Shown: positions 5,290 to 37,643 of the stretch, piece by piece
Numbering within the stretch: position 1 is the stretch's first letter
Layout: each line of letters begins with the position of its first letter
Assembly: GCF_024502345.1 (NCBI RefSeq)
Contig: NZ_JALDNN010000003.1
Direction: 5' to 3' (one strand)
From: Escherichia coli
Lineage (GTDB): Bacteria > Pseudomonadota > Gammaproteobacteria > Enterobacterales > Enterobacteriaceae
Length of the DNA: 64,000 nt
Notes under the pieces: generated by a model
What the model was told of the DNA's origin: nothing
Database searches by the model: none
Seen by the model: the letters and a program-made list of their open reading frames with translations, nothing else
Position numbers and translations under genes: made by a program

Positions 5290-5316
5290 TGATGGTTTTG
5301 CAAAGGGGAGAGTTTT

Positions 5317-5994: not shown

Positions 5995-6035
5995 GTATAG
6001 TAATATCAATTGATTAGATTGAGTTATCTATTAAT

Positions 6036-6068
6036 AAAAAGTCAGCTTACCAGCTGGCTTTTTTTTGG
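6036..6068 (+). terminator. Rho-independent terminator after the parM operon
   Basis: Stem AAAGTCAGC / GCTGGCTTT followed by a T8 run. Confidence 0.5.
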
Positions 6069-6559: not shown

Positions 6560-7012
6560 ATGTTATCACGCAACTCACTAATACACGGTTTACGTCGAGA
6601 TCAGTTAATCGAAGTTCTGTCTATTTCTGAATTCCCAGTTGTCCTGGTCGAGAATCCCTTCATTCAGCCTAAATCAACAGGCAAAAAACCAGTCATTTTT
6701 AATATTGATGAATTTCATGTTTCCATTGCCCCAATTTCATCGCTTAAGTACGACTGGGAGTGGGCTCCAATTGATACAATACTCATCGAAGTGGTCATTC
6801 CGCCTGCTGAAGCAGACCTGGTAAGCGCCGAGAATGATTTCCTTCGCGATGCAGGTATTGGCCATATTCAATGCGAGCCTGGAGGCGTTTCGATACGCCG
6901 TACAGTGACATTTGTTGGGGGGATCACCGCCGACAATTTGCTGTATCAACTCAGGCTTATGTGCGTAAGTGCTTTACACTTGATTGGAGAGGAACTGGAG
7001 GATGAAAGTTAA
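6560..7012 (+). CDS. Hypothetical protein
   Basis: 150-aa ORF, first of three co-oriented genes upstream of the large secreted protein; no motif recognised. Confidence 0.3.
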   Translation: MLSRNSLIHGLRRDQLIEVLSISEFPVVLVENPFIQPKSTGKKPVIFNIDEFHVSIAPISSLKYDWEWAPIDTILIEVVIPPAEADLVSAENDFLRDAGIGHIQCEPGGVSIRRTVTFVGGITADNLLYQLRLMCVSALHLIGEELEDES

Positions 7013-21957: not shown

Positions 21958-22034
21958 TTTTGATTTCTTTATTTACAGGAATGAACCCGTGTAGTATAAC
22001 GTATATGAGCTTGAATTTATTGCTCCCACATTTC

Positions 22035-22150
22035 AAGTAACTTTATAAAAGTTACTTTGCGCGTTAAGCGCATATTCAGCCGTGAAAAGCGGCCAGCTTT
22101 CTAAAGCTGCAAGGCACCACCGGCAAAATGTCACCTTTGTCGCTGGTGCC
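22035..22150. promoter_or_regulatory. Cluster of five consecutive hairpins, opening with a 23-bp perfect palindrome; candidate ssDNA promoter, ssi or origin-like structured element
   Basis: Inverted repeats read directly: 22035-22057 AAGTAACTTT-ata-AAAGTTACTT; 22058-22072 TGCGC-gttaa-GCGCA; 22079-22093 GCCG-tgaaaag-CGGC; 22094-22109 CAGCTTT-ct-AAAGCTG; 22113-22150 GGCACCA...TGGTGCC. The function is inferred. Confidence 0.4.
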
Positions 22151-22354
22151 TTTCCCATGTCTGAAAAAGGACAATCGAATTTACCAAATCGTAACTAACT
22201 TAGCTCTTAATTGAGCTATTTTCGTTGCGTACTTCTAATGCCAGAAAGTATAAATCAGGCGGTTCATAGCTTACGGGAGATGAATGACAGGCTTTGCCTT
22301 TGTGTTGGGATATTTAATGATTCCTTCCTTCTTACTATATATAGGTGACCCCAA

Positions 22355-23230
22355 ATGTCTAAAAGTAAAGCACGCAGTAAAGCTCTTCTCATCGCCTTCG
22401 CTGATCTGATCCCAGATATGGATAAGGTGGTTAACAAGAAGTTATTGGATTCTCTGAATGTTTATTCAGGGCATGATAATGACCTTATTGTTATTATGAA
22501 TGAAGATGGTCCAACCATAATTGAACTGAATTCTTTGAAATCAGTTTCAATGCTGGCTCAAAAGCTTTCTGCTTTTTCTACTTATTATCATGTGGAAATG
22601 CAGCAAATTCTTGTCAATCCAATTGACTTTGAGAAAGCTTACACACTTCTCAAAGAAGCACCTGCAATTCCAATGTTTAAAACTTTAGCCGATCTGGATA
22701 AGTTCTTAAATGAAGAGTTTGAAAAGTACGGGTTGAACACATTTCTTGATGTGGATAACCTTGATTATTCACTCGCTAAATCCAGAGAGTTAAAAAATGA
22801 TCAGTTGGTTGCCTGGGTTTCTGAAATTATTGAGAAGCGCGAGAAATTAGCATTGCGTAATCGATTTAATGAAGTGACCAAAGCACATTATGAAACTGTA
22901 GATGCAATGTATGCAGCCGTTCGCCCATTAATGAAAGAGTTAGGTTTTCCTGATGAACTCATGTTACACACCTTTAGTGAATTGAGCGTTTTCGATTCCA
23001 AAGGCTGGGATTATGCTATCAAGTCGAAAATTGAGTTTCTCACTAAACGCGAGGAGCAATGTTTAGATTATCAAATGAAAGCAGATAAACGGCAAGCGAC
23101 AGTTGATGAACTCTTGGCACAAATCAATAACGCTAAAACGGTAAAAGCACCAAGATCTTTTGGTCAGCTGTTTGGCTTTTCTGTTATTGCCATGATGACA
23201 TTTATGTTCATTGTAAACAAATTTATCTAA
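22355..23230 (+). CDS. Hypothetical protein with C-terminal transmembrane anchor
   Basis: 291-aa ORF, first gene of the long unidirectional block; hydrophobic C-terminus FGFSVIAMMTFMFIV. Confidence 0.4.
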   Translation: MSKSKARSKALLIAFADLIPDMDKVVNKKLLDSLNVYSGHDNDLIVIMNEDGPTIIELNSLKSVSMLAQKLSAFSTYYHVEMQQILVNPIDFEKAYTLLKEAPAIPMFKTLADLDKFLNEEFEKYGLNTFLDVDNLDYSLAKSRELKNDQLVAWVSEIIEKREKLALRNRFNEVTKAHYETVDAMYAAVRPLMKELGFPDELMLHTFSELSVFDSKGWDYAIKSKIEFLTKREEQCLDYQMKADKRQATVDELLAQINNAKTVKAPRSFGQLFGFSVIAMMTFMFIVNKFI

Positions 23231-23288
23231 TCCTGTTAAGGGGAAACCCTGACGGGGCTTCTCTTTGCTTAAATTGAGGAGAGAAGTA

Positions 23289-23666
23289 ATGTCATATCTT
23301 GAATATGTTAATGAAGTAAAAGTGTCCGGGATAGTTATCAGTGCAATGGAGAAAGAAATGACTAGCGGAAACGTTGGGTTATTGATAAAGCTCAAAAACA
23401 GAATGAAAACTGAAATTAATGGTGAAATTACTGAGAGAGAATTTTCGATTCAAATCAAAGTATCACCAGAGATGTATTCAGGCTGTTTCACTGGTATAAA
23501 TCAAGGTGATGAGTTAATGGTCTCCGGTTATCTTGTTGTGGATACCATCACATTGGAAGGGAGAGAGCATCCTCTTGACTACATGAGAGTAGTTGCAACA
23601 AGTAAGTTAGCTCACATACCTAAACCTCCTAAGGGTTTTGGGCAAAGTAGCTTTAGACAGATCTGA
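23289..23666 (+). CDS. Putative OB-fold single-stranded DNA-binding-like protein
   Basis: Pattern VKVSGIVIS...G..V.....L...G...V.GYLVV resembles the SSB/PriB OB-fold layout; weak, by-eye only; start chosen at the ATG following the RBS GAGGAGAG. Confidence 0.3.
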   Translation: MSYLEYVNEVKVSGIVISAMEKEMTSGNVGLLIKLKNRMKTEINGEITEREFSIQIKVSPEMYSGCFTGINQGDELMVSGYLVVDTITLEGREHPLDYMRVVATSKLAHIPKPPKGFGQSSFRQI

Positions 23667-23726
23667 CATTTAAACCACCCAAAAGGGGAGAAATCCCTTC
23701 ATGGGAGTTCTCCCTTAGGAGATCCC

Positions 23727-24713
23727 ATGAAACAAAAAATAAGGCCGACTGCATTTTGCAGTAAGCAAATGGATTTTTTCTCTATATTCGATTTTGAAGA
23801 AGAGGAAAAAGAAATAATAACTATAGTTGAGTCTCCACTTGACTATATAAATGATGCAATAGCCGCACAACAAAGTATTCAATCAGAAGATAAACATTCA
23901 GGCCCGGAACTGGAGCCTAGTGTGTCGGAAGATGTTGCTTTGCCTGGTAATTGTCCCAAACTACTCAAAAATCAAATTCTGCATGACATTAGTTTTGCTG
24001 CGGAAACTGATTATCTCTTCACTCTAGAAGAGTACAGTGCGGAGTTAGGTGGTCTGGTTTTTGACTGGGCCCCTGAAGATGTATATCAGTTATACGTCGT
24101 CGCAATGGAAGAGTCGTTGGAAAACGTAAGGCATCTCGTCATTACAAAATCACTCTATTCCACTGATGAATTCGGTAACATAACCGTGAATCCGCTTCTT
24201 GAAGCCGAAACACGGTGGTATATGTCGAAATCATTTGAGCTTACATGTGCCACTCATGGTATTGATGCTATTGAGTTCAGGTCAGAGCTTAAAAAAAGCT
24301 TATATGAATATACGCACAGTTACGGAGGTGAAAATGCTGAATTAGCTCGTTATCATCAAGATAAAGAGGTTATTCTGCATGATTGTAAGGAAGAGATGGG
24401 ATGGGATATCTTTTTCGAACAGGACTATTTGTTGCAAGAAAACAAACTGGCAATGAAATGGACTGATCGGGATATAATGGATGTCTATTCTAAAGTATTT
24501 AAATCAACAATTAATTTGTTTGAAAAACTTGTCGTTAATAACAAGTTAACCTCAAGAGATACTTTTGGTTGGGTAATCGTAAACCCTACATTTGAACGCC
24601 AGTTTGAATGGATTGAGTCAGAAGTATTCGAAATCGTAGGAACTCATCTTGGTTACAACGTTGCCGCTATCAGAACACAGATGGCGACGGCGTGTAGGAT
24701 GACTTTCCACTAA
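23727..24713 (+). CDS. Hypothetical protein
   Basis: 328-aa ORF preceded by a GC-rich leader hairpin; no motif recognised. Confidence 0.35.
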   Translation: MKQKIRPTAFCSKQMDFFSIFDFEEEEKEIITIVESPLDYINDAIAAQQSIQSEDKHSGPELEPSVSEDVALPGNCPKLLKNQILHDISFAAETDYLFTLEEYSAELGGLVFDWAPEDVYQLYVVAMEESLENVRHLVITKSLYSTDEFGNITVNPLLEAETRWYMSKSFELTCATHGIDAIEFRSELKKSLYEYTHSYGGENAELARYHQDKEVILHDCKEEMGWDIFFEQDYLLQENKLAMKWTDRDIMDVYSKVFKSTINLFEKLVVNNKLTSRDTFGWVIVNPTFERQFEWIESEVFEIVGTHLGYNVAAIRTQMATACRMTFH

Positions 24714-24772
24714 CATGCCACTGGCAAACATCTGCCAGCGGGCGGTGTTTGCATTTTACCGGAGTTTTAAAA

Positions 24773-25825
24773 ATGACTAACGCCGCAACTGTATTAAAAT
24801 CCGACAATTCCGTACAGGAAGAAATCATTGGTAATCTGTTACCCGCAAATGTTATATCAAGTAAGATGTTTGCGAATAAAGAACAGTATTATCTTGTCAA
24901 AGCAAAAGATTTATTTGGCATTCCTGAGATGGATGAGGATATGATTGTTCCAGTGTTTAAAAAGTTTTCTCCATATCGTGCGAATCTGAATAAGGACTAT
25001 ATACCAAATTCTCGAATACTTGAGCAAGTAGTAAAATTGCTTGTAAGTAACGATATAGATTTGAGTGTATGCCTGAAAGGAGAATCTGGATCAGGTAAGA
25101 CTGAAATGGCAATGTATATTAGCCATATGCTGAACTGGCCGCTAACCATAAAGCAAATCAACAGCAATATTCGCGCTGATGAGCTGGAAGGTGAGCGTAG
25201 TCTTATTAACGGTAACACCAGTTTTGTGCCTAGCGAGCTTGTAACGGCATTTCAGGAAGGCCACCTCATTCTTCTGGATGAAGTGGACAAGATTGACCCT
25301 GATACTGCCGCAAAGCTTCATATGCCTATAGAGCGAAAGCCCTGGTCACTAGCTGCCAACGGTGGCGAAGTGGTTAAGGCAAATAAGTTTACGCGATTTA
25401 TGGGTACTTCAAACACAAACATGAGTGGGGGATCTCGTAAGTTCGTTTCATCGCAGCGGCAGGATGCAGCGTTTATCAAGCGCTTCCTGATTGTGGAGAT
25501 GGAAAGGCCTTCAGAGGTTGCATTAACCAACGTTTTGCTTAAACGCTACAATAACCTGCCTATGCTGGTAATTGAAAAATTCGTTTCGGTAGCCGTTGCA
25601 GTAAACAACACAGGAACTGACGACAGTGTAATGGATATACGCCAGCTTGTGGCATGGGTTGGAACGTCAATGACGTTAAAGACCATGTCCTTACTGGATA
25701 CATTTAAAATTGCTTTTGCGTCGGCTCTGCCTGCACATGCCACTGGTATGGTGTTGGAAGCCATCGACTTAATTCTCGGTGACGACAAGAACCGTACAAT
25801 GGAGTATTACACTGCAAAAAAGTAG
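24773..25825 (+). CDS. AAA+ ATPase, CobS/MoxR-like (AAA_5-type)
   Basis: Walker A GESGSGKT and Walker B ILLDEVDK; size about 350 aa; start set at the ATG after a SD-like CCGGAG. Confidence 0.6.
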   Translation: MTNAATVLKSDNSVQEEIIGNLLPANVISSKMFANKEQYYLVKAKDLFGIPEMDEDMIVPVFKKFSPYRANLNKDYIPNSRILEQVVKLLVSNDIDLSVCLKGESGSGKTEMAMYISHMLNWPLTIKQINSNIRADELEGERSLINGNTSFVPSELVTAFQEGHLILLDEVDKIDPDTAAKLHMPIERKPWSLAANGGEVVKANKFTRFMGTSNTNMSGGSRKFVSSQRQDAAFIKRFLIVEMERPSEVALTNVLLKRYNNLPMLVIEKFVSVAVAVNNTGTDDSVMDIRQLVAWVGTSMTLKTMSLLDTFKIAFASALPAHATGMVLEAIDLILGDDKNRTMEYYTAKK

Positions 25826-25863
25826 TTATAGATGGGACGAGTTATCAGAAGGCTGAATGCCGT

Positions 25864-26133
25864 GTGACAGACTTTGCTCATCTTACGTTTTACGGTTTTC
25901 TGAGTGCAAACGGAACTGAAACTTTCGTGATTGCACAAGATGGAAATCAATATATAGGTCTGAAGCAGCATAATAATGACTATTCATTTATTTGTTATGA
26001 AGTCTGTAACAAAGATATGGAAGCCATGATTAAGGGCCTTGAATCAAAAGGATTCATGTATCAAGGGAGCATTCAATCGGCGGATGTCGAAAATGAATTT
26101 CCTGGAATTCTTTTAACAACACTTGAAAAGTAA
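25864..26133 (+). CDS. Small hypothetical protein
   Basis: 89-aa ORF between the AAA+ gene and the next gene. Confidence 0.3.
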   Translation: MTDFAHLTFYGFLSANGTETFVIAQDGNQYIGLKQHNNDYSFICYEVCNKDMEAMIKGLESKGFMYQGSIQSADVENEFPGILLTTLEK

Positions 26134-26203
26134 TATTATTAACCCTATCGGGAAATCTTTCCCGACGGGGAGGTTTTCCCATTTCTAAATCTGGAGAAAA
26201 CCT

Positions 26204-27331
26204 ATGACTTTCAATACTTCTAAACTTAATAAAGTTTCTGCAAAGGAAATCAGTGAAAACTTTATAAAAGCATATCCTGACTTGCAGAAAGGTGCTGTTA
26301 TAACAAAAATTGAAATTAGTGGGTGTCAGGGCTCTCGGCGAACTGATAAAATCGAACTGTCCTATGGCGGTGATGATATAACAGACCAGAAGAGCGTGTC
26401 TAAAAGCGAAGTTCGCTGGATAGACATAAAGGCACTGAGTTTCAAAAGCACTATCACTAGTCGAATTTCAACCCTTTGTTCACGGTTGTGCATCCGCTAT
26501 AGCAATATGTGGATACTGCCAGTTGAAAGGATGGAGGAGTTTCTCGAAGAGGCACAAGAAATCGAACGTGAATTTCAAGCCGGTATCCAGAACGTGGTTG
26601 ATAACTATGACACTCATATTCAGGCTGAGAAAGATCGCAGTCCGTTGATGTCAGATTTAATTGACCAGTTGAAATTGACTAAAGATGATTTTGTTAAATC
26701 ATTCCGGTTTAATCTGGCACATTTCATTCCGTTTTCACCGATTAGTGTGGAGGGGGATGAAACGCAGGACTTTTATCAAGAACAACTGATAACTGACTTG
26801 GCCGATGAAGCTATGAAGGTTTATACAAAAATCAGCAAAAATGATAATTTGCGTTCCAGCACGATTGACCGATTAAAGCAGATGCAGGATAAAATAATTA
26901 GCTTCATGTTCATTCATAAAGAGGCTGTTGTTCTTGCAGAAGCTATTAAGCATATCATGAATAATTTACCAAAAGGTGCCATTTCTTCTCCCCGTGATGT
27001 TGCGGTATTAAAGCAGTGGTTCTATTTCATGAGCGATGCGTCAATGCTGAAACGTATTATCTCCGGTGAACAAAAGGTAACCGACTGGCTGGATTCCATA
27101 ACCCGGTCATTCAATATCGATTCACAGGTTACAGCGGCTAACTCTCTGAATACTGCTGAGGATGATGTTTTTTCTTCAGCAAATGTTTTCAGAGAAGACC
27201 CGGTTGAAGATCTTGAGAACAAGGCAGTGAATGCACCTGAGCCTGCTGTTGGCCCTGATGAAGATGTTTCTATTCAGGCCAGTGGTAGTAATAGAGCATT
27301 TGACTGCGAACTCGAATTGACCGGTTGGTAA
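26204..27331 (+). CDS. Hypothetical protein associated with the AAA+/vWA pair (possibly the DUF3150-type partner seen with CobS/CobT-like pairs)
   Basis: 375-aa ORF located between the AAA+ ATPase and the vWA protein; family assignment is from recollection of gene-neighbourhoods, not a search. Confidence 0.35.
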   Translation: MTFNTSKLNKVSAKEISENFIKAYPDLQKGAVITKIEISGCQGSRRTDKIELSYGGDDITDQKSVSKSEVRWIDIKALSFKSTITSRISTLCSRLCIRYSNMWILPVERMEEFLEEAQEIEREFQAGIQNVVDNYDTHIQAEKDRSPLMSDLIDQLKLTKDDFVKSFRFNLAHFIPFSPISVEGDETQDFYQEQLITDLADEAMKVYTKISKNDNLRSSTIDRLKQMQDKIISFMFIHKEAVVLAEAIKHIMNNLPKGAISSPRDVAVLKQWFYFMSDASMLKRIISGEQKVTDWLDSITRSFNIDSQVTAANSLNTAEDDVFSSANVFREDPVEDLENKAVNAPEPAVGPDEDVSIQASGSNRAFDCELELTGW

Positions 27332-27408
27332 TTTAGTCTTGTAAAAATATCCCCAGATGGGTACTTCACCATCTGGGTGAGTACCCTTTATCAAATAAAG
27401 GTACTCAA

Positions 27409-29421
27409 ATGAAATTTGATTTAAAATCTTCACCACGCCATATTCAACGCCTGACGAATATAGCCAGCGTGATAAGCGGTATAAATGGGATTTATGTAAT
27501 TATTGACAATAAGGTGAGTACACCTTATTTCAACACCCAAAACAATGTCTGTGTTTTACCTAACGGTGATTATAGCGATGAGAGATTTGTCAAGCTAATT
27601 GAAGGATTCATATGTCATGAAGCAGGACACGGTCGTTATACAGAGCATGAAGTATACCGTGAAGCTTTTGTTGGAGAATTGATCAATGCAGATGGCTTCA
27701 TCAGTATTGATGATGACTTGAAGGCTGATTTTCAAAACCTAAAACAAAAGCAAAAAGCATATGCTCGTGCTTGTCGACTAAAAGGACTTATTAATCTTTT
27801 TGATGATGTCCAGATGGAAGAGAAGACGGGTATTGATTATCAGGAGGCAAAAAAACGCCTCGCGGTGACTTATGCCTTGATGGTTGAAGCTGGGCGAATG
27901 ACGGTTGATATTTCTTCAACCCCTCAAAACCCGGTTCAGTTTATTGAAATGTACCTGCTTAATACATTGCGGGTTAACGTTCTCCAACAAGAAGGGCATA
28001 AAGAAACGCTTGACCCATTTTTCGATTATGCAAAGAAAATCCTTGCACCTGTAACTTCAGAAGTCGATGAGATCATTCATCAAGCTCTAAGTTGCAAAAG
28101 TACGCAAAATTGCGATTCTCTGGCGCGTAAAACTCTGGCTCTTTTAGAGCGTTTAAGGGATGAAGCAAAAGAGAAACAGCAAGAAGAGGAGCAGTCGAAA
28201 GACCCGCATGACGATACAGATGAATCATCTGGCTCTGAGAATGAACCTGATACCGAACCCAATGGTGATAGCCAGGGTGAAGGGGATGGTGATAAAGAAG
28301 GTCAAGGCGATGATTCTGGTGATGGTAAGGCGCCTGCGGAAGGTAATGGGTTACCGGACCAATCCGGAGGGGATGAACAAAATGCTGAGAACTCTAACGG
28401 CGAACCTGATGGTGAGTCTGAAGGTGATGAATCGGCGACCCCCGGCTCGGATGATGCTGACTCGACACCTTCCCTAAACGACAGTTCAAATGGAAATTCT
28501 TCTGATGGGGAAAGTAACTTTTCTCCTGAACAGTGGGATATGCTTGCCAAATTGCTGGATGATTTTTTAAACAGTGATGAGGAAAGCGAGGATTTTCATG
28601 AGGTTCTTGCAAAAGAGATCTCCGTAATTGCTGCCAGTGTGTCGGATGAGGTTAAAGCTGAATTTGGTGCAAGTGAGTGGGATGTTCCAGATTTGAACAT
28701 TGATCTGAATGTCTACAATGAAGCATTAAATATCAGCCAGACCCTTGGGGCAGATTTATCTGTTTTACAGCAGGTAAAAATGCGTGGTCAATTTAAAACC
28801 CGTGATAGAGGCTTGTCATTCGATATTAATCGACTGATCCAGTCTCCGATGGGTGTTAGGGATGTATTTCGGTCACAAAGCGAATCTAAAAACCGGGGCC
28901 ACGTCGGCTTGGTCATTGTTCGTGATATTTCAGGTTCAATGAGTCTGGAACACCGTTATATCCATGCAATTAAGACTGACCTTGCATTAACTCTGGCAAT
29001 TGAAGCTATTTCAAAAATGCATGTTGCTAATGTGATTTATCCGTTTGTAGACAAAGATTTTGAAGTTATCAAAACGTTTGATGAAAACGCGGAAGAGAAA
29101 CTTTCAAAATTCTCACTTGGCTGCAAGGGCAATAATACCCCAACGGGTTCTGCATTAAATGCTGCTTTAGAGTTGTTACTTGAAAGCCAGTTTGACAGGA
29201 AAATTGTTTTCCTTATTACTGATGGTTATCCGACTGAGTCGGCTTACACCATTAATGATGTTTTTTCAGTTGCTGAAAGTAACGGCATTGAAATCGCTGG
29301 TGTTGGTATTAAAACTGATGTGTTGATGGGTTTTAATGAGGGCACCTTCGTAAATGTTGATGATATTTCTTTATTGCCGAATGAGGTCAGTAAATTAGTA
29401 CATCAAATTCTATCTAATTAA
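27409..29421 (+). CDS. vWA-domain protein with long acidic linker (CobT-like partner of the AAA+ ATPase)
   Basis: C-terminal MIDAS-like motif VIVRDISGSMS followed by FLITDGYPTE; a central D/E/G/S-rich low-complexity region of roughly 120 aa. Confidence 0.55.
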   Translation: MKFDLKSSPRHIQRLTNIASVISGINGIYVIIDNKVSTPYFNTQNNVCVLPNGDYSDERFVKLIEGFICHEAGHGRYTEHEVYREAFVGELINADGFISIDDDLKADFQNLKQKQKAYARACRLKGLINLFDDVQMEEKTGIDYQEAKKRLAVTYALMVEAGRMTVDISSTPQNPVQFIEMYLLNTLRVNVLQQEGHKETLDPFFDYAKKILAPVTSEVDEIIHQALSCKSTQNCDSLARKTLALLERLRDEAKEKQQEEEQSKDPHDDTDESSGSENEPDTEPNGDSQGEGDGDKEGQGDDSGDGKAPAEGNGLPDQSGGDEQNAENSNGEPDGESEGDESATPGSDDADSTPSLNDSSNGNSSDGESNFSPEQWDMLAKLLDDFLNSDEESEDFHEVLAKEISVIAASVSDEVKAEFGASEWDVPDLNIDLNVYNEALNISQTLGADLSVLQQVKMRGQFKTRDRGLSFDINRLIQSPMGVRDVFRSQSESKNRGHVGLVIVRDISGSMSLEHRYIHAIKTDLALTLAIEAISKMHVANVIYPFVDKDFEVIKTFDENAEEKLSKFSLGCKGNNTPTGSALNAALELLLESQFDRKIVFLITDGYPTESAYTINDVFSVAESNGIEIAGVGIKTDVLMGFNEGTFVNVDDISLLPNEVSKLVHQILSN

Positions 29422-29492
29422 ACTCTACCCAATCGGGGCAAAACGACGCCCGGTTGGGTCGCTTTGCTCCCTGAAGGATTAAGGAGCAATAT

Positions 29493-29714
29493 ATGACTCA
29501 GATAAAGACTTACCGTGTCGAGTATGAAAAAGTCGGGACGATGCATCGTGTCCGTATTTTTGGTCGCATGGGTGAAATTGTCAAAAGTGAATTGCCAGAA
29601 GAAAGAATTCTCCGGGATGTATCTATACCAGAGGGTAATGGAGAAATGGCAACGTCAATGGTTGATGGTTTTATCCAGCGTCTTGAAAATATCGGCTTCA
29701 AGACTGAAGCGTAA
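29493..29714 (+). CDS. Small hypothetical protein
   Basis: 73-aa ORF with a leader hairpin and an SD-sequestering hairpin upstream. Confidence 0.3.
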   Translation: MTQIKTYRVEYEKVGTMHRVRIFGRMGEIVKSELPEERILRDVSIPEGNGEMATSMVDGFIQRLENIGFKTEA

Positions 29715-29807
29715 TTGTTGAGGGCTCTTGTGGGCCCTCATTCTTAGATTCTGCGTTGTGGGTTTCTCCCTGTTTTCTGCATCGCAGAGGGCATTGAGAA
29801 ACCCACA

Positions 29808-31061
29808 ATGCCAGATAAGAGAGAACAAATGACTTATGCATCCCAGGCTGTTAAGCGTACACCACATGAAGTCACTGACCACTTTATAAAAATGGTTCAC
29901 GCTCGTATAGCGGAAGTATCAGGCTGGCGCTATGTATTCGATAGAATACCGGCATTTAAAGACGCTTGTGATAAAGCACCTGGCCAGGTTCCTTGCCCAT
30001 TTAGTGGGGTCGGGAAATCAAAGTTCCGGTTCCGTAAAAAGGACCTCTTTACCGGTTGTGCCATTCACAATGATTTTCCAGTGAATGCATTTTGTGACGG
30101 TATTGATGTATTGGCAGAGTACTACAAGCTGAGCAAGACCCAGACTTGTAAGAAGATCCTGACTGATTTCTTTGGGATGGATTTGTACGCTCCATTAACT
30201 GATGCGGATCTCGAAAGTGAACGTCGTTATAAATCAACAGTTCGTGCAACCGAAACGCTTGACAGCGATGAAGTTGAAAAACGAGGGCGTAAACTTGAAG
30301 TGATATATCACTATACCGGTGAAATCAAACCTGAGAGCCCTGTGTGGGTGTATCTCCGAAATCGAGGTCTTAATCGAGTTCTGAGCAACCTTCCCAAGGA
30401 TTTAGGTCTGAACAAACGACTTTACTACATGGATAAGTCACTGGAAAAACCCACGATTTACCCGGGAATGATCGCAATTTATCGCGATACCCGTGGGCGT
30501 CCTCTGACAATCCACAGAACGTTCGTCGAGTTAAATGGTGATAAGGCACATGTTGAGAATCCGAAACTGATGATGAAACCGCCTGCCGATATGACTGGCG
30601 GCTCAATTCAGCTGTACGATCCACACTTCAATCCAGGTACCCGTACCTGGACGTTAGGTGTGGCTGAAGGCATAGAAAACGCGCTGTCAGTTACTGAAGC
30701 GACTTCAACACCGTGCTGGGCCGCGAGCTCTGCCTGGTGCCTTGAAAACGTTGAAGTGCCGGATAGTCTCCTGCCTCCCCCTGGTGTGAAAGTAATACAG
30801 TTTTACATCTGGGCGGATAAGGATCTTGTGAATACAAAAGGCACTTCCCCGGGAATGGAGTCAGCTAAACGACTTCAGGAACGTATGAAAGAGTTTTTTG
30901 CAAAGCGATATCCCACTTCAGAGCTGACAATTAAAGTCTTTGAACCTGATTTCGATATTCCTGTAGGGAAGAAAGGAGTCGACTGGAACGATGTACTAAA
31001 ATTAACAGGACCGGATGGATTCCCCGTAAAATGGGCTCCTGAATGTCTTGCTCAGCTTTAA
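29808..31061 (+). CDS. Toprim-domain DNA primase-like protein with N-terminal zinc-binding region
   Basis: Cys/His cluster PCPFSGVGKSKF...TGCAIHNDFPVNAFCDG, a Toprim-like acidic motif TLGVAEGIENALSV and a downstream WADKD segment. Confidence 0.55.
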   Translation: MPDKREQMTYASQAVKRTPHEVTDHFIKMVHARIAEVSGWRYVFDRIPAFKDACDKAPGQVPCPFSGVGKSKFRFRKKDLFTGCAIHNDFPVNAFCDGIDVLAEYYKLSKTQTCKKILTDFFGMDLYAPLTDADLESERRYKSTVRATETLDSDEVEKRGRKLEVIYHYTGEIKPESPVWVYLRNRGLNRVLSNLPKDLGLNKRLYYMDKSLEKPTIYPGMIAIYRDTRGRPLTIHRTFVELNGDKAHVENPKLMMKPPADMTGGSIQLYDPHFNPGTRTWTLGVAEGIENALSVTEATSTPCWAASSAWCLENVEVPDSLLPPPGVKVIQFYIWADKDLVNTKGTSPGMESAKRLQERMKEFFAKRYPTSELTIKVFEPDFDIPVGKKGVDWNDVLKLTGPDGFPVKWAPECLAQL

Positions 31062-31335
31062 ATCCGATAACTCCCCCGCCTTTTCAGGCCGGGGGGGGTT
31101 ATCTCTTTAGTGTTTATTTACGTTAAATCCTAAACAGATAATCCGATTTCCTTCGTGAAAATCACCTGTTATTCAGGTTTTTTTTACGGCTGAGATGCTT
31201 GCTCAGTTTAATAAATGTGCGATACAGCTGGCTACGGTCGGTTGTATGACATGGTATATCCATAAAACTTAAAACCCCTGACGGGAGTATTACCGTTAGG
31301 GTGATGCTCATCGTTAAATATCGGAGAGCATTGTT

Positions 31336-31860
31336 ATGAATATTGAAAATCAAGATTTATTTAATACGTTCGCTGCTGTGATTTCATCTCATATCGTTGA
31401 GCAACCATCTTCGTGTTATTACCTTCATGATAATGAAATTGACTTCACGATTTTAAAACACAGCATAATAGATAAAGACAAAAACCTGTTGTACGTTATT
31501 CGTCCTTCAGGAACCTGTTTGTTGCGTTGTGATAAATACTTCTTTCCGAATTACTATCTTACAAGTCGTGGAGATTATAAAGCATTTAAGTATGTGCATT
31601 TTAATCTTGCAACACGAGAAGCGGAAGAAATCACCTGGCAGCAAGCTTTTGAAATTTTGTCCAAGCCGGGAAGACCTCCATTAAGAGGTTCACTTGGTAA
31701 ATTTGATTATTTAAAACTTGTTATTGATGATCTTCGTGCGCGAGGGTATGCCGATTTCCTTCCAGCATACAACCTTGATGGCCTTCGTCACTTTGCAGTA
31801 AAGGATGAGCGACCATCACTTGTCAGTTATATCGACAATGTCATGGCACTTTGCGCATAA
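31336..31860 (+). CDS. Hypothetical protein
   Basis: 174-aa ORF preceded by a leader hairpin. Confidence 0.35.
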   Translation: MNIENQDLFNTFAAVISSHIVEQPSSCYYLHDNEIDFTILKHSIIDKDKNLLYVIRPSGTCLLRCDKYFFPNYYLTSRGDYKAFKYVHFNLATREAEEITWQQAFEILSKPGRPPLRGSLGKFDYLKLVIDDLRARGYADFLPAYNLDGLRHFAVKDERPSLVSYIDNVMALCA

Positions 31861-31937
31861 AGATAACACATATTTTTACTACATCCCTGATGGCACCTCC
31901 CATCGGGGTGGCCCTCAGAGTTGAATCTGGAGGTCTT

Positions 31938-32816
31938 ATGAAATTAGCTACAGATCTGGTCAATGCGGTTCTGATAAAGAATGGCATTGTACCAACTTCC
32001 ATTAATGAGTTGCCTGTAACGTCGCTGGTAAAGCCATTGACACAAGTGCATCTCAGCCTGTATCTGAAAACAACGCATTTATCTCAGTTCGTCCCTGACT
32101 ACGTTGAGTCTCTGAAAGATTGTCCGGTTTCGTATGATATCGGCCTTGAACTTCAGCAGTGTATCAACAGTGCTGAATTGCTCTGTGAAGACATGGAGTC
32201 ACTTGAGTTTATCTCTGTATGGATAGAGCTCTATACGTGTAATTCAAAGCAACAGCGGTTTGAGAAAAGTAACTTTTCTTTTCGAACTGAAGATATCGAG
32301 CTGGCTAAGATGCTGTCTTGCTCGCATGAAATCTTAATAAGTCAGGCGGCTTGTTTCTGGCTTTTGTATTTTGAAGATTTCATGAAATATGTTCGTAATA
32401 GGCTCTGTGCATTACTCAGACAGGTTTTAATTTTGATTGCAGGACTGCGAAATGTATACCTGCAACGGAATGAAGATCAGTTGATTAAGAGAGTTAAGCA
32501 CGGGAATGAAATGCTGGAGGTGACTCTTAAAGCTGTTGCACTATGTTCAATGGAAAGGTATCTGAAATCATATGCCTCTTTACGAACAGAAGCGGCGGCT
32601 TCTGGGTTTATCAAATGCATTCAGTCTTATATCAGTACTGGTTGGAGACATGGCTATATAGTCTGTCAATATTCAAAAAATGGACGGTCTCTTGGTAAGT
32701 CATTACCACTTTTTATAAAAGAGACATCTGAGCATAATATACAGAAACGTGTCAATCGCCTTATATCTTCCACGATTTCGGGGCGAAATAAAGATTTAGG
32801 TCTTTACGATTTCTGA
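31938..32816 (+). CDS. Member 1 of a tandem five-gene paralog family, unknown function
   Basis: Shares the N-terminal pattern (L/I)(V/I)xA(V/F/M)L and the size class with the four following genes; start set at the ATG after the SD CTGGAGG. Confidence 0.45.
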   Translation: MKLATDLVNAVLIKNGIVPTSINELPVTSLVKPLTQVHLSLYLKTTHLSQFVPDYVESLKDCPVSYDIGLELQQCINSAELLCEDMESLEFISVWIELYTCNSKQQRFEKSNFSFRTEDIELAKMLSCSHEILISQAACFWLLYFEDFMKYVRNRLCALLRQVLILIAGLRNVYLQRNEDQLIKRVKHGNEMLEVTLKAVALCSMERYLKSYASLRTEAAASGFIKCIQSYISTGWRHGYIVCQYSKNGRSLGKSLPLFIKETSEHNIQKRVNRLISSTISGRNKDLGLYDF

Positions 32817-32832
32817 TTAACATTACCCATCC

Positions 32833-32869
32833 GGGGATTACATCCCTGATGGGTGTAATCCCATTTTTT
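32833..32869 (+). terminator. Intercistronic hairpin with U-run between paralogs 1 and 2 (attenuator-like; an alternative pairing is possible)
   Basis: GGGGATTACA (32833-32842) pairs with TGTAATCCC (32854-32862) and is followed by T6; alternatively CCCATC (32826-32831) pairs with GATGGG (32848-32853). Confidence 0.45.
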
Positions 32870-32886
32870 ATTTAAGTGAGGATTAC

Positions 32887-33822
32887 ATGAAAATTATTGA
32901 GAAAATCATTAATGCATTTCTGATATCGCGTAAACATTCAGTGAAGGTCAGTAATGTTATCTGCTTGAGTGGCACCGACGGTAAATTTACTGGAATATGC
33001 TGTGACGCCGATGTTTCATTTGATTTTCTTTATTCGTATGCCCCCGCATACAGTTCAACATTTTTAGATATCCCGTTTCCTGGGTTTGAAGACCAGGACA
33101 TCGCGGATTGTGTTAAATGTCAGTTAGATGTAGTTAAAAATAAACGGAATCGGTCTTTTTTAATTGACCATATTAGATTTCCAGTTTCCTCAAGGGAAGG
33201 ATTCACTCTGACACGCGGTGATAGTTACGACGTGACTGAATGTGAATATAATAAGGAACGATTGCTACATCTGACCCGACAAGGACGTTTTTGTGAAGAC
33301 TATCTCACGTTCAAGGATGGCCTGAGTTCCTTCTTTTCATTTGTGAATTTCGAATTACATGAAATAGTGAAGGAAGGTATACGTTTGGCACTTGATGTTT
33401 TAAACAAGATTACATCTGATCAACCAGACCGTCTTATAAAAGACTTTAAGTATCATGATTGCTTCGGCAGTTATAATGTACAAATATTTTCTAAGGGTCT
33501 GCCAGTTGATATCCTTGAAACGATGATTGCACCTGATAGGTTGTTGTCTAACTTGTCAGGTAGTCGTCAGATTATGAAAAATGCAAGTCGCTATCTTAAA
33601 GGCTTTGCCCTCAGTAATCGTGTTTACATGAAATACGGATGGCGTTTAGCAGATGTTGACACATCTGACTATGCGAAAGTTATGTCAGATAGAGAAATGC
33701 ATGCCAGAGATGATCTTAAGGCGTTTTGCAGTGTCTTTTTTAAAGAGTGTTTCGCATCCGGAAAATATGAATACGAAGCATACCTGAGTGAAAGACAACA
33801 CGCGATTCGTAACGGGTATTAA
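32887..33822 (+). CDS. Member 2 of the tandem paralog family
   Basis: N-terminus MKIIEKIINAFL parallels MKAIYKIIEAML of member 3; the C-terminal segment NASRYLKGFALSNRVYMKYGW parallels NHVNRYLSGRVMKRRIYAVIEA. Confidence 0.45.
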   Translation: MKIIEKIINAFLISRKHSVKVSNVICLSGTDGKFTGICCDADVSFDFLYSYAPAYSSTFLDIPFPGFEDQDIADCVKCQLDVVKNKRNRSFLIDHIRFPVSSREGFTLTRGDSYDVTECEYNKERLLHLTRQGRFCEDYLTFKDGLSSFFSFVNFELHEIVKEGIRLALDVLNKITSDQPDRLIKDFKYHDCFGSYNVQIFSKGLPVDILETMIAPDRLLSNLSGSRQIMKNASRYLKGFALSNRVYMKYGWRLADVDTSDYAKVMSDREMHARDDLKAFCSVFFKECFASGKYEYEAYLSERQHAIRNGY

Positions 33823-33899
33823 TACTTATTATCAACTTATCTAATCCCTGAGGGAATTCTTCCCTTGGAGAGGATTCCCTCTTAACCGAGGGCTACAAA

Positions 33900-34820
33900 A
33901 TGAAAGCGATTTATAAAATAATTGAAGCGATGCTGGTGAAAATGGGCTTTGAAGGTGCCGTGATCCAAAGTGTCAATCTGGAAACGGGTGTGATTCAGAG
34001 TCTAGTTGTTAAGGCTGATATTCCTGTCCGGACTTTAATGCCGCATTTAAGGCGATATCTGCGCGATTGTGAGCCTTTATGGGGACATGACGTGGATTAC
34101 CACCCTATAGCACAATATTGCTCAGGAGCTGCGTTGTTGAAGGCTGGGCCGGTCACTCTTGAAACCTTTCGGTTTGAGGTTTCAGTGTCAACTGCTCACC
34201 TGCGGCTTGTGGATATTGAGCCGGACTGTCTAAATGAGGGTGTGAACCGTGAAAAACTGGAGTATGTATATTACCGCTCCAGCAATGCAGACAAGGATCT
34301 AATACTTGGTATGGTTGAAAAAGGACATAATTTTATCAATCATCTGCATGAACTTTTACGCTCGCGCTTATCAACGGCTTTGCCGCTGATTTTCGCAGTT
34401 ACAGAAAAGATTGCGGAGAGTTCAGTTCCACAAGTAGTCACCAGCTTTTTCAGTGTTGACCATCAAATCAATGCCCAGATAGTAGTCGAACCTGTACCCG
34501 TTTCAGTCGCAGACCAGATAATTTCTGCTGACTGGAATGTGTGTAGTGTTTCAGGAGCGGATAAGTTCCTGAACCATGTTAATCGTTATCTGTCGGGTAG
34601 GGTGATGAAGCGGCGTATTTACGCTGTTATAGAAGCTTGCGACGGTGGATCTTTATCCCTCAATGCGAACTTAGGTTGCTTTACATCACCTCTTCTCGTA
34701 ACTGAGTATAAAATGGTTCAGTCACACTCTTCATCGCTTTATCGAAAGGCTATAAATAACTCGCTTAAGCAAGTTAATTCGTATGCTCCAGAGCATTCAG
34801 ATGACCTGCTTTCTATGTAA
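33900..34820 (+). CDS. Member 3 of the tandem paralog family
   Basis: See member 2; similar length of 306 aa. Confidence 0.45.
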   Translation: MKAIYKIIEAMLVKMGFEGAVIQSVNLETGVIQSLVVKADIPVRTLMPHLRRYLRDCEPLWGHDVDYHPIAQYCSGAALLKAGPVTLETFRFEVSVSTAHLRLVDIEPDCLNEGVNREKLEYVYYRSSNADKDLILGMVEKGHNFINHLHELLRSRLSTALPLIFAVTEKIAESSVPQVVTSFFSVDHQINAQIVVEPVPVSVADQIISADWNVCSVSGADKFLNHVNRYLSGRVMKRRIYAVIEACDGGSLSLNANLGCFTSPLLVTEYKMVQSHSSSLYRKAINNSLKQVNSYAPEHSDDLLSM

Positions 34821-34892
34821 TTAATTTTACCCATTGGGGAAGCGTATTCCCCGTGGGGGTTGCTTCCTTTCTTCATTAAAGAGGAAGTGAAT

Positions 34893-35828
34893 ATGTTTAA
34901 TGAAAGTGATGATAAAAACTTTGTTAGTGCAATGCTTAAATGTCAACTTGGCCTGAATATAAGCCAAGAGGATATTACAATATATGACAAAGAAAATCAT
35001 TTTGAACAACTTTCTTTTAAAGCAAATGTGGCGCTTGATGATTTGTTATTTTATCTGGATTTATATATATCAGAATTGATTAAGCATAATGCGCCGTATT
35101 CTGAAACTGAAGTCCTTCGGACTAAAATCAAATACTTTCTTAAAGTATATGAAAAGTCTGGTTTTCAGAACATAAGAATTCGCGGTTATCATAACGCGCA
35201 CAGCACTATAGATATTGTCGATATCGCATCATTAATATTGGCGGGGTCTGTACCGGAGTCTGAACATGATTCAATAGATCCTGTTTTAAGAAAGGAAATC
35301 TATCAAAATCGCATGAGTGTTGAGGGTAAAGTTCTCATTGCCCGTTTTGCACTTAAGCAATTTTTCCATTCTGATTTTGGTGATTTCATCTTAGAGTTCG
35401 AGAAAAGTATCTCCAAGTGTTTGAATACTTCTCTCCAGATAATTAAATCTGTAAAGAACTCATTTAACCGTTTAGGTCAATATCAATATCAGCGTCGTGT
35501 AAAAGATGACCTGACTTTGCATCTTGATTTGAATACAGATGAATACCCGGCCTGTATGCCAGACCTTTACATCGGTTTCAAGGAGTCTGAAGGGACGACG
35601 GGAGTGTATCGCGATGATGAAAAAATCATTCGTCTTTATACTGGCGTTAGTTCCGGAAAGGATGTTCCTGTAATGATGACCGTTCGATTCACTGGCTGTG
35701 ACGGGAGTGTTTTGTCTGAATCATCGCACGGTACTTTCTGTTCCGTGGGACCTACCGGCCGAGTGCAGGTTTGTGACAGAGTTGCGTTGGTCCAAGAAGC
35801 GGTCGAAGAGTTACGGGATGTTGTTTAA
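34893..35828 (+). CDS. Member 4 of the tandem paralog family
   Basis: Clear paralogy with member 5: VEGKVLIARFALKQFFHSDFGDFI versus VDGQVLIARFALEKFWDTHFIGLI, and YQRRVKDDLTLHLDL versus YTRRITDELSLHISL. Confidence 0.5.
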   Translation: MFNESDDKNFVSAMLKCQLGLNISQEDITIYDKENHFEQLSFKANVALDDLLFYLDLYISELIKHNAPYSETEVLRTKIKYFLKVYEKSGFQNIRIRGYHNAHSTIDIVDIASLILAGSVPESEHDSIDPVLRKEIYQNRMSVEGKVLIARFALKQFFHSDFGDFILEFEKSISKCLNTSLQIIKSVKNSFNRLGQYQYQRRVKDDLTLHLDLNTDEYPACMPDLYIGFKESEGTTGVYRDDEKIIRLYTGVSSGKDVPVMMTVRFTGCDGSVLSESSHGTFCSVGPTGRVQVCDRVALVQEAVEELRDVV

Positions 35829-36004
35829 CCCTTGTTTTTTACCTCTTCATTCCAAAAAGTAACTTTGTTCTACCAAATGACCGCGCTACCTATTCTGATC
35901 AACTTGCAGGAAAGAATGGCGCAGTAGTACATATTTTTAATCCACCCACTGGGGAAGTCGCTCCCCTGTGGGGCACTTCCTTTAATAATCCTGAGGAAGT
36001 GAAG

Positions 36005-36961
36005 ATGACTAATTCTACTGATAACCAGAACTACGTTCGTGCAGTACTGGCAGGCATTGGTATTGATTTTGATGAAACAGAGATGTTTATCAGTGTCTCT
36101 CATTGCCAGAGCGACGAAGTTTCGTTTACATGCAGTATATCAGCCAGTGAGTTAAGAGAATCTGCGGGGCATTATGTGGATACTCTTAATGATACCCAAC
36201 TGGCTGGCCTGGATGCGGATGCACTCAAGAAGCGACTGGTTTACTTCCTTGAGGTTTTCGACCTGGTTTCCGGTCAATATCTGGATATTTCCGGTAAACA
36301 TTTCGCGACCAGCCGCTTTGAATACGACGATGTCTGTAGTGAGATCCTGAGTAACTCTGCGGACAGCGCCCAGCCAGGTGGCTATGATCGTGAAGAGTAC
36401 AAAAGACTGATGGAAGTTGATGGTCAGGTTTTAATCGCCCGATTTGCACTGGAAAAATTCTGGGATACGCATTTTATTGGGCTTATCAACTATGTATCAG
36501 ATGAAATAACATCCGGGCTTTATGAGGCTTATCGCACGTTCAGTGATATAAACATGGCCGGTTATACATTTAGTGAGTATTCATATACGCGTCGTATTAC
36601 CGACGAACTTAGTTTGCATATTTCACTTAAAGAGGACGATTTCGAAGAGCAATTAACCGATTGTTATATGGATGAAACAACGCTGCCGTCTGGCAAGGTG
36701 GTTTTACGCCGTAATAATGAATCAATTATTGGGATTTATGAAGGATATGCTTCAAAATCTTACTTTCCTATGGTTGCTAATGTTAGAGTCCTTGATACAG
36801 ATGGTGAAGTTGTTACTGAACTTTACCAAGGGGTGAATGTATCAGAATTAGCTGGTGGTCGGATTAAAATCCATGACCGTCAGGAATTAATTTCTGAGGT
36901 GTTCGCTAACTTACGTGAATTCATCCCAGCATCAGAGGATAAAATCTTTGATGCGGCATGA
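36005..36961 (+). CDS. Member 5 of the tandem paralog family
   Basis: See member 4; start set at the ATG after the SD GAGGAAG. Confidence 0.5.
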   Translation: MTNSTDNQNYVRAVLAGIGIDFDETEMFISVSHCQSDEVSFTCSISASELRESAGHYVDTLNDTQLAGLDADALKKRLVYFLEVFDLVSGQYLDISGKHFATSRFEYDDVCSEILSNSADSAQPGGYDREEYKRLMEVDGQVLIARFALEKFWDTHFIGLINYVSDEITSGLYEAYRTFSDINMAGYTFSEYSYTRRITDELSLHISLKEDDFEEQLTDCYMDETTLPSGKVVLRRNNESIIGIYEGYASKSYFPMVANVRVLDTDGEVVTELYQGVNVSELAGGRIKIHDRQELISEVFANLREFIPASEDKIFDAA

Positions 36962-37005
36962 GTCCTGAAGGTTGAATTATATATTTTCAGGTTTTTATAC
37001 TTCTA

Positions 37006-37038
37006 AGAAGGCACGGTTATCCGTGCCTTTTTTTTTGC
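37006..37038 (+). terminator. Rho-independent terminator ending the paralog array
   Basis: AAGGCACGG-ttat-CCGTGCCTT followed by T9. Confidence 0.55.
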
Positions 37039-37373
37039 TTTCGTCAAAACTTGCATTGATTTCACAATTTTACAACGTTCTTACTGCCCTATATGTTTTA
37101 CGGTACTGTACTCTTGGCACCGTTACATGTAAGCCTTCCATTACCTTCTTCAACCAAACCTAGCCTAATTTACATCCTTCCAGCTGTTTCCTTCTCTGCT
37201 TCTTTTACTCGAATGTTTTGCCCCTTGCTGACGTTTCCGGCAGCACACAGTCCGAATGCTGGAGCCTCCAAATTACTTTTTACTTCTTTTGTTTCGGTTT
37301 CGCGAAAATAGGTCTCTTATCTGAAAAATGGATCGTTAGAGATTTGTATACTGTTTAAAACAAAGGAGTCACT

Positions 37374-37643
37374 ATGCCTGCCACTACAATCCTGAGCAAT
37401 AACCCTGTGAATTCGGTCTTCTCTAATGACAATAGCCATTTCACATACCGGCATATTGATTTCAGTATTGAGCTACTGCTTTCTTCAGGAACTGACTCAC
37501 AACTGGAATATCTGTTTCTCAAACCGGCGGCTGAAGTAAAGATCGATTTACAGCGCCGTTTAGCTAGTGGGGAACGTTACGTTACAACCGAGAGTTGTGA
37601 CAATTTTAGCGAAGTTGATGGCTGCATGGGACACGATTGCTGA
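37374..37643 (+). CDS. Hypothetical protein
   Basis: 89-aa ORF; no motif recognised. Confidence 0.25.
   Translation: MPATTILSNNPVNSVFSNDNSHFTYRHIDFSIELLLSSGTDSQLEYLFLKPAAEVKIDLQRRLASGERYVTTESCDNFSEVDGCMGHDC

Follow-up and report, generated by a model that had tools for sequence, protein, structure and literature searches.

A tandem array in the Tra2 region of an IncHI1 plasmid

The window analyzed here, that is, the whole stretch of 64,000 nucleotides (nt) on Escherichia coli contig NZ_JALDNN010000003.1, belongs to an IncHI1 plasmid of the R27/pHCM1 type and carries five consecutive genes on the plus strand, called M1 to M5 here, whose products are all labelled 'hypothetical protein' in RefSeq. 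M1 (31938-32816) encodes 292 amino acids (aa) and is found both as an open reading frame (ORF) and as a RefSeq coding sequence; M2 (32887-33822; 311 aa) and M3 (33900-34820; 306 aa) are ORFs as well, followed by M4 (34893-35828; 311 aa) and M5 (36005-36961; 318 aa). A first-pass annotation of the sequence had drawn attention to five consecutive genes of 292-319 aa, and such genes are indeed there, with products of 292-318 aa. RefSeq takes the ATG at 36005 as the start of M5, and the GTG at 35999 would yield 320 aa. The genes are spaced by 70-176 nt, and the array ends, as had been proposed, at a strong terminator, predicted to be an intrinsic one on the plus strand (37005-37041) with a 12-bp stem (37005-37032) containing six GC pairs, a 4-nt loop and then the T-run TTTTTTTTT. 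In the original annotation of R27, M5 is split into two ORFs, and the entries Q9L5F1 and Q9L5F0 correspond to its two halves.

Fifteen genes form the operon to which the array belongs as its distal, variable cassette. The upstream part of the operon (22355-31061, plus strand) comprises, according to the annotation and Pfam, g1, g2, g3, an AAA_5 ATPase gene, g5, a DUF3150 gene, a VWA gene, g8 and a Toprim_3/DUF7146 gene (toprim; 29808-31061), the last of which is the primase-like neighbour that the first-pass annotation had placed in this plasmid block. Then comes M0 (31336-31860, plus strand; 174 aa), directly upstream of the array and unrelated in sequence to the array families (hhalign E >= 0.11). 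Farther upstream lie the Tra2 genes htdA, htdF, htdK, rsp, trhW, trhU, trhN and trhI, and downstream of the array a Tus-like gene, an integrase gene and hha. The 64-kb window, which is a Tra2 region, contains neither a relaxase gene nor an origin of transfer (oriT); the oriT of R27 is presumably located in Tra1. The 5.3-kb array region is matched over its full length at >80% identity by 283 plasmids, 217 of them at >=99%; the matching plasmids belong to IncHI1, with Salmonella Typhi pHCM1-type plasmids among them. With a more sensitive search the array block is found in 1,408 plasmids, among which those of IncHI2 have a nucleotide identity of about 65%.

One family with three subfamilies

M1-M5 are members of one family, which is divided into three subfamilies, M1, M2/M3 and M4/M5. 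By plain blastp only two pairs are significant, M4-M5 (E 1e-39, 27.6% identity across the full length) and M2-M3 (E 7e-9). For more sensitive comparison, profiles were built from the orthologues of IncHI1, of a lineage with 85% identity (L003), of IncHI2 (L002, L004) and of distant elements (L007, L010), together with further database proteins. With hhalign these profiles connect M4 with M5 at E 3e-62, M2 with M3 at E 1e-13, M1 with M3 at E 1e-7, M1 with M2+M3 at E 2.5e-8 and M1 with M4+M5 at E 7.7e-5, and the weakest link is that between M2+M3 and M4+M5 (E 2.8e-4). All the links are colinear over 220-305 columns (220-276 for those of M1 and for that between M2/M3 and M4/M5), while none of 22 controls, for which similar-sized unrelated neighbours and reversed profiles were used, came below E 0.077 or extended beyond 56 columns. 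Hidden Markov model (HMM) matches across subfamilies reach E 1e-5 to 5e-5. Thus, the tandem array of diverged paralogues that had been postulated is upheld, M4 and M5 being clearly paralogous as stated and M1-M3 more distant, with M1 tied to the other members by profiles only.

Structure prediction points in the same direction. AlphaFold2 (AF2) models of M5 (pLDDT 89.7, pTM 0.83) and M2 (pLDDT 78.5, pTM 0.74), made from separate alignments, show the same order of helices and strands, and in the register that hhalign derives from sequence only, 66% of the DSSP states are the same in both, compared with 25-55% at shifted registers. Foldseek with the M2 model retrieves M3-sized AFDB representatives at E 1e-12 and a 292-aa, that is, M1-sized, Salmonella entry at E 4e-7 with TM 0.6. 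The link of M2/M3 to M4/M5 is therefore probable, short of proven. Three similar-sized neighbours, g1 (291 aa), g3 (328 aa) and a 302-aa gene after the Tus-like gene, were considered as extra members and rejected (hhalign E >= 0.077).

A new protein family

What kind of proteins are these? They are soluble and of about 300 aa, with an N-terminal alpha/beta domain, a central helix of 30-45 residues and a C-terminal beta-rich domain, and none has a transmembrane segment or a signal peptide. The family is new, with no known domain and no solved structural relative. Pfam-A gives no match at E <= 0.1 for any of M1-M5, and the precomputed Pfam fields of all homologues are empty; in NCBIfam, PHROGs and PADLOC the best E for the array proteins is 0.058; and the PDB yields neither a sequence match nor, with the AF2 models, a fold match. 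The first-pass annotation had recognized no known family, and none, housekeeping families included, was assigned by these searches. An exhaustive HMMER search with the M4/M5 profile gave 43 matches among 1.84e9 representative proteins, about a dozen of them full length, and no relative of the array was found in the GTDB species-representative genomes. In the literature, the RefSeq accessions of the array proteins occur in no paper. Nearly all residues that are invariant within a subfamily are hydrophobic, and the subfamilies share no conserved catalytic motif. It may be added that the C-terminus is Ala-Ala in all but one of the M5-type proteins examined (M5 and P0020, P0023, P0029, P0031, P0034 and P0038), a terminus that resembles a ClpXP-type degron, and that the M4-type proteins are without it.

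For their function, the first-pass annotation had proposed host interaction, in the form of anti-restriction, anti-defence or exclusion; homology and structure support none of these activities. One more specific proposal along this line is that they are anti-restriction or anti-defence proteins, each directed against a different immune system of the recipient, and M5 could then be an acidic DNA mimic. M5 orthologues are indeed consistently very acidic, with isoelectric points (pI) of 4.3-4.8 and net charges of -21 to -31 (pI 4.4 and about -30 in M5 itself), and the missing enzymatic motif also fits. In addition, genes under a repressor may be switched on for a short time when they enter a cell that does not yet contain it, a phenomenon known as transitory derepression. 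On the other hand, M1-M3 are near neutral (M4 being mildly acidic, with a net charge of -11), the array proteins are larger than typical anti-defence proteins, and they show no similarity to ArdA, ArdB, ArdC, KlcA, any PHROG or any phage protein; tblastn against phage genomes found no homologue either. Furthermore, the block lies outside the oriT-proximal leading region, in a window that has no relaxase gene, and the analogy with plasmid leading regions does not apply directly. Neighbouring genes give no help to this proposal: among the 18 neighbouring proteins scanned, only AAA_5, DUF3150, VWA, DUF7146/Toprim_3 and Ter were recognized, with no anti-defence, SOS-inhibition or SSB gene (ardA, psiB, ssb) and no SSB domain, and the SSB-like neighbour reported in the first-pass annotation was not found among them. 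A known defence system formed with the neighbours was also considered and rejected, PADLOC giving only weak generic AAA matches on ten neighbouring proteins.

Conservation among close relatives, turnover among distant ones

Each of M1-M5 has a 1:1 orthologue, in the same order and with the same length, in IncHI1, L003 and IncHI2, and the amino-acid identity between the IncHI1 and IncHI2 proteins is 47-64%. The ratio of non-synonymous to synonymous substitution rates (dN/dS) of the array genes is 0.14-0.24, and that of the neighbours is 0.06-0.29 except for one short gene of 73 aa at 0.81. At this scale, the description 'rapidly diversifying' of the first-pass annotation is hence wrong, and it is between distant backbones alone that genes come and go. 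Of 72,556 plasmids, 1,406 carry M5, and at least 80% of it is retained in 1,394 of them. The M5-bearing plasmids examined are all of the IncH type by replicon or backbone, and there is no presence/absence variation of the array within IncHI1 or IncHI2. The array is thus restricted to IncH-type plasmid backbones. For the anti-defence proposal, these results cut both ways, since copy number and composition do vary among distant relatives, while purifying selection and the constancy within IncHI1 and IncHI2 are against it. Altogether, we consider that proposal unlikely.

How variable is the array beyond these close relatives? The more distant IncH-like backbones retain the surrounding operon in full and differ in what the cassette contains. 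IncHI1, L003 and IncHI2 have M1-M2-M3-M4-M5, two elements (L013 and L017) have M1-M3-M4-M5, one (L010) has M2-M3-M5-M5', a partial contig (L016) ends in M3-M5, and another element (L007) has only M1 and M5. The IncHI3 plasmids p721005-HI3 (L012) and pKp6001 (L019) have no array at all, and in them M0 is followed by the terminator and small downstream genes; a Shewanella MOBH plasmid (L020) also has no array, only the DUF3150/AAA/VWA/toprim cassette. Both IncHI3 plasmids are conjugative by MOB-suite typing and keep the rest of the operon. The comparison of copy number across related plasmids, which the first-pass annotation had recommended, therefore reveals five, four, two or no copies in different combinations, and such numbers among related backbones fit an accessory rather than a core role. 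M0 itself has orthologues at the same position in L007, L010 and L012 (tblastn and blastp), and L013, L017 and L019 have same-sized ORFs there, matched by size and not by sequence. It is kept in the plasmids without the array (L012:11281-11820; L019:6301-6840), in which the terminator is directly 3' of M0. From this arrangement, it seems that the array was inserted, or expanded, in the interval from M0 to the terminator. In short, the array is an expandable addition to the backbone in the IncHI1/IncHI2 clade and in a few relatives, and its members can be lost one by one.

The two M5-like genes of L010 group as sisters in a neighbour-joining tree made without bootstrap, which suggests that this pair arose by a separate duplication. 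When the distant members P0037 and P0038 were used as tblastn queries against PLSDB, they matched only IncHI plasmids, at less than 30% identity; for this reason, the two-copy and four-copy elements must be absent from the sequenced plasmids of PLSDB. In a few plasmids an insertion sequence (IS) sits in the array: ISEc33 lies within M5 of a Serratia IncHI2 plasmid (L005:15012-17559), and IS3-family elements are found in two others (H24 and H64). Such insertions show that a plasmid can persist when M5, at least, has been lost.

These contents bear on a second explanation, according to which the five paralogues are subunits of one hetero-oligomer that would cooperate with the MoxR-type ATPase/VWA proteins and the primase-like protein to process DNA during transfer, the leaders described below enforcing coupled, stoichiometric translation. 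Five paralogues of similar size in a fixed order, with 1:1 orthologues across IncHI1 and IncHI2, are what one would expect of such a complex. Related backbones are nevertheless without M2, without M1, without M4, without all but two members or without the whole array, and yet keep the ATPase, VWA and primase genes. The varying content therefore argues against an obligate complex of five subunits and against a core role in conjugation, and the hetero-oligomer is weakened as an explanation by this combinatorial loss of members.

Leaders with sequestered ribosome-binding sites

The first-pass annotation assigned to each array gene a leader hairpin of its own. Such hairpins are real, with folding z-scores of -3.8 to -5.9 for M1-M5, but they are not specific to the array: z is below -3 in 12 of the 14 leaders between 23231 and 36004, so the feature is operon-wide. 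On average the operon leaders have z -4.7 and a minimum free energy (MFE) of -27 kcal/mol, compared with z -0.3 and -14 kcal/mol for 20 other genes of the window. Apparently, 12 of the 14 leaders (found among g2, g3, DUF3150, VWA, g8, toprim, M0 and M1-M5) share a module of two hairpins. Hairpin A is a GC-clamped palindrome, CCC..GGR..YCC..GGG, and if this motif is taken strictly and required to fold stably (<= -8 kcal/mol), only six are found in the 64 kb, all in leaders of the operon. Hairpin B follows directly on the 3' side, and its 3' arm is the Shine-Dalgarno (SD) region up to the start codon.

On the plus strand, the M1 leader (31885-31935; MFE -26.2 kcal/mol, z -3.8) has hairpin A at 31885-31908 and hairpin B at 31910-31935, the latter pairing with the GGAGG ribosome-binding site (RBS), and this architecture is retained in IncHI2 with a different sequence. 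In the M2 leader (32825-32886), hairpin A (32825-32854) is followed by hairpin B (32855-32886), which sequesters GAGGATTAC up to the ATG. The hairpins of the M3 leader (33846-33892; z -4.4) pair with a GAGGG RBS. In the M4 leader (34830-34890; z -4.7), hairpin A occupies 34830-34857 and hairpin B (34860-34890) sequesters AGAGGAAG, and in the M5 leader (35945-36001; z -5.4) the corresponding positions are 35945-35973 and 35974-36001, with GAGGAAGTG sequestered. The same architecture is retained with differing sequences in IncHI2, IncHI3, L007 and L010, and the module is also present in L003. RNAalifold reports 3-6 compensated pairs per leader, and in the M2 leader compensatory changes affect 6 of 23 pairs. 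No known RNA family was recognized: in an Rfam cmscan of 21900-37500 at E <= 1, only sub-threshold chance matches appeared, none of them in the leaders. The leader of toprim (29715-29830) deserves a separate remark, as its hairpin, with about 57 nt (-32 kcal/mol alone), is unusually long and ends at the ATG at 29808. The RefSeq start of toprim is at 29829, 21 nt downstream of that ATG, and the hairpin and both starts are conserved in IncHI2, IncHI3, L007 and L010.

Within hairpin A there is a third element, a repeat of the SD-region sequence, for which pairing with the anti-SD arm is possible. The alternative helix of the M2 leader pairs GGGATTACA with TGTAATCCC and is followed by a T-run, resembling a terminator, and 82% of its cells are paired, compared with 39-55% in slid controls. 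All three elements of this leader change together, from GATTACA in IncHI1 to GATCACA in IncHI2, among the five sequences compared. For the same five sequences, a score as high as that observed is reached by 96 of 500 shuffles, and the covariation of the alternative helix is no more than suggestive. Can the alternative helix pay for the opening of the RBS? This was considered and rejected, because at equilibrium the freeing of the SD region still costs 9-12 kcal/mol in most leaders. Such a cost means that the opening would have to be driven by ribosomes coming from upstream (coupling or re-initiation), by a factor, or by the kinetics of folding. The module may act in translational coupling or re-initiation, or as a switch. 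For the hetero-oligomer described above, an RBS sequestered at every cistron is in line with upstream-dependent translation of its subunits, while the presence of the same leaders before unrelated genes of the operon speaks against a device made for the subunits of one complex.

Expression of the operon in R27

To use published data, the genes were related to the R-numbers of R27 by counting from trhN (R0005), not by sequence, except that M5 is identified by Q9L5F0/Q9L5F1. In this way, g1 to toprim become R0002, R0001 and R0210-R0204, and M0 to M5 become R0203 to R0198, with M1, M2, M3 and M4 as R0202, R0201, R0200 and R0199, and M5 as R0198 probably together with R0197. The nine genes from g1 to toprim are then exactly the 'cluster of 9 genes' that is strongly induced at 25 °C (Gibert et al., 2020; PMC7366339). 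In the R27 microarray table of that study, R0198-R0203 read 27-129 units in the wild type at 25 °C (104 for R0198 and 129 for R0200, the latter 3.6-fold above its value at 37 °C), and R0199 and R0201-R0203 are scored as not expressed. In the htdA mutant at 25 °C, the same table gives 2740-6669 units, an increase of 38-116-fold, compared with 5-27-fold for the tra genes listed alongside; at 37 °C the values of R0198-R0203 there are unchanged by the htdA mutation and scored as not expressed (PMC7366339). By the same source, 139 of the 181 expressed R27 genes are derepressed by the htdA mutation. An IncHI comparative-genomics preprint and an IncHI1 proteomics paper do not use R-numbers.

By this gene-counting map, the array would belong to the HtdA/TrhR-TrhY regulon, being derepressed at 25 °C and silent at 37 °C. 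The signal of R0198-R0203 in the htdA mutant is 3-4-fold below that of R0204-R0210 as tabulated (PMC7366339), and this decrease would fit two terminator-like hairpins (31078-31099 and 31164-31178, plus strand) located in the 274-nt gap between toprim and M0 (31062-31335), which probably attenuate transcription into M0-M5 in part. No sigma-70-like promoter is found on the plus strand of this gap. Within R0198-R0203 the tabulated signal is roughly uniform, a further point in favour of the hetero-oligomer; weighed together with the losses seen in related plasmids, we regard that explanation as unlikely.

A third alternative is that the array is decaying or selfish cargo that has no role in transfer and is expressed only by read-through from the upstream operon. 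Basal expression in wild-type R27 is at background in the table mentioned above, terminator-like hairpins precede M0, IncHI3-type plasmids live without the array, and IS elements have entered it in a few plasmids. But decaying genes would hardly keep all their reading frames intact with dN/dS of 0.14-0.24 over a deep divergence, nor at least 80% of M5 in 1394 of 1406 plasmids, and each gene has its own conserved, covarying leader and RBS. Cargo is, in our opinion, very unlikely.

Of the genes upstream, the cassette of AAA_5 (MoxR-like), DUF3150, VWA and Toprim_3/DUF7146 (24773-31061) is common to IncHI1, IncHI2, IncHI3-like and IncHI5-like plasmids and to the Shewanella MOBH/MPF_F plasmid, and IncC-type plasmids have a partial homologue of the toprim gene. 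Its function appears to be uncharacterised, though it is strongly co-regulated with tra genes in R27; the literature on DUF3150 gave one irrelevant preprint only.

A possible role of the array

If the array is neither a fixed complex nor cargo, what can it be? The explanation that we prefer, tentatively and with a probability of about 0.35, is that the array proteins are individually dispensable, non-enzymatic binding proteins that aid plasmid establishment or host interaction and are made when transfer is derepressed. The operon would be transcribed only when the transfer functions are derepressed, that is, at 25 °C and 38-116-fold more without HtdA. Donors competent for mating would then make a burst of array proteins, and cells that have just received the plasmid would probably do the same until HtdA accumulates. 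The proteins may be binding proteins rather than enzymes, because hydrophobic residues account for almost all of their invariant positions and the subfamilies have no catalytic motif in common. Each paralogue might bind a different partner, which would be a factor of the host or of the plasmid by which establishment is limited, and if so, the members would act independently and could be gained or lost singly. The array would thus be a set of accessory modules for establishment or host interaction and not a part of the core conjugation machinery.

Several points weigh against this explanation. No homologue ties any member of the array to a function, and the strict 1:1 conservation of all five in about 1,400 IncHI1/IncHI2 plasmids is also compatible with a hetero-oligomer. 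The block is not beside oriT, and expression of the array in transconjugants is something we only infer. The R-numbers, apart from those of M5, come from gene counting, and since the htdA mutation derepresses 139 of 181 genes, co-regulation with transfer is only weakly specific. Anti-defence is a possible and concrete version of the establishment role, although its usual hallmarks, namely proximity to oriT, small size, turnover among close relatives and phage homologues, are lacking. A bolder version can also be imagined, in which the array is a toolkit of paralogues with a new fold that is specific to these plasmids, released in a burst at mating, each disarming a different host barrier, so that the set carried (0, 2, 4 or 5) helps to set the host range, and in which translation of the 15-gene operon is gated by a repeated three-element RNA switch not described before; we think it improbable in this complete form.

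Among the main vehicles of multidrug resistance are the IncHI1 and IncHI2 plasmids, both in typhoid Salmonella and, for mcr-1 and tet(X4), in E. coli and Enterobacter. The genes of these five proteins take up about 5 kb of the conserved backbone of such plasmids, are under purifying selection and are among the R27 genes most strongly repressed by HtdA. If the array aids establishment or host range, it would stand for a new class of fitness determinants in plasmids, at which attempts to block plasmid spread might be aimed; if its deletion has no phenotype, it is just another conserved hypothetical block. In either case, the repeated leader design is a tractable case of cistron-by-cistron control of translation in a long plasmid operon.

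Comparison with known systems

The only structural relatives outside the family are uncharacterised proteins of about 300 aa from Dickeya, Pectobacterium, Brenneria, Photorhabdus, Serratia and Salmonella (AFDB A0A5B8HP55, A0A603NEL0, A0AAJ1YHK3, A0A6L9JU38 and others). Foldseek with the M5 model finds them at E 3e-9 to 1e-7 and TM 0.60-0.67 over the full length, and the M2 model finds five of the same proteins more weakly, at E 4e-3 to 0.17. Their identity to the array proteins is 10-15%, and being unannotated themselves, they add no functional information; a literature search for NgrC, the name attached to one AFDB match, led to unrelated papers only.

At the level of gene organization, the array lies transcriptionally downstream of the AAA_5-DUF3150-VWA-Toprim cassette of MOBH/MPF_F plasmids, and IncHI3-like and IncHI5-like Klebsiella plasmids and the Shewanella plasmid have the cassette without the array. 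The array resembles the anti-defence islands of plasmid leading regions (Samuel et al., 2024; PMC11541004) in that both are plasmid-borne clusters of co-oriented, uncharacterised genes whose expression is tied to transfer. Unlike those islands, it is situated near the Tra2 genes, far away from both oriT and the relaxase gene, belongs to a conserved backbone under purifying selection, and is controlled by HtdA on the donor side. The text on those islands mentions neither 'IncH' nor 'R27', and MOBH occurs in its reference list only (PMC11541004).

In a comparison with the anti-restriction proteins ArdA, ArdB/KlcA and ArdC, the strong acidity of M5 recalls DNA mimics, but the array proteins differ in size and architecture. 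A 708-aa protein of Salmonella houtenae with DUF1738, the N-terminal domain of ArdC (AFDB A0A5Y2S904), is weakly matched by the M5 model (E 7e-4, TM 0.40 by query and 0.21 by target), and from this match it is possibly a fusion of an ArdC-like and an array-like domain.

Hairpins that sequester an RBS are well known in translational control, for example in the coat-replicase coupling of phage MS2, in the rpmI-rplT operon and in RNA thermometers. The leaders of the array operon are like these in that hairpin B pairs the SD region up to the start codon, that its opening costs about 9-12 kcal/mol and that its pairs covary. They are unlike them in that the design is repeated before 12 of 14 cistrons, always after a GC-clamped palindrome, and with a third element as an alternative pairing partner of the anti-SD arm.

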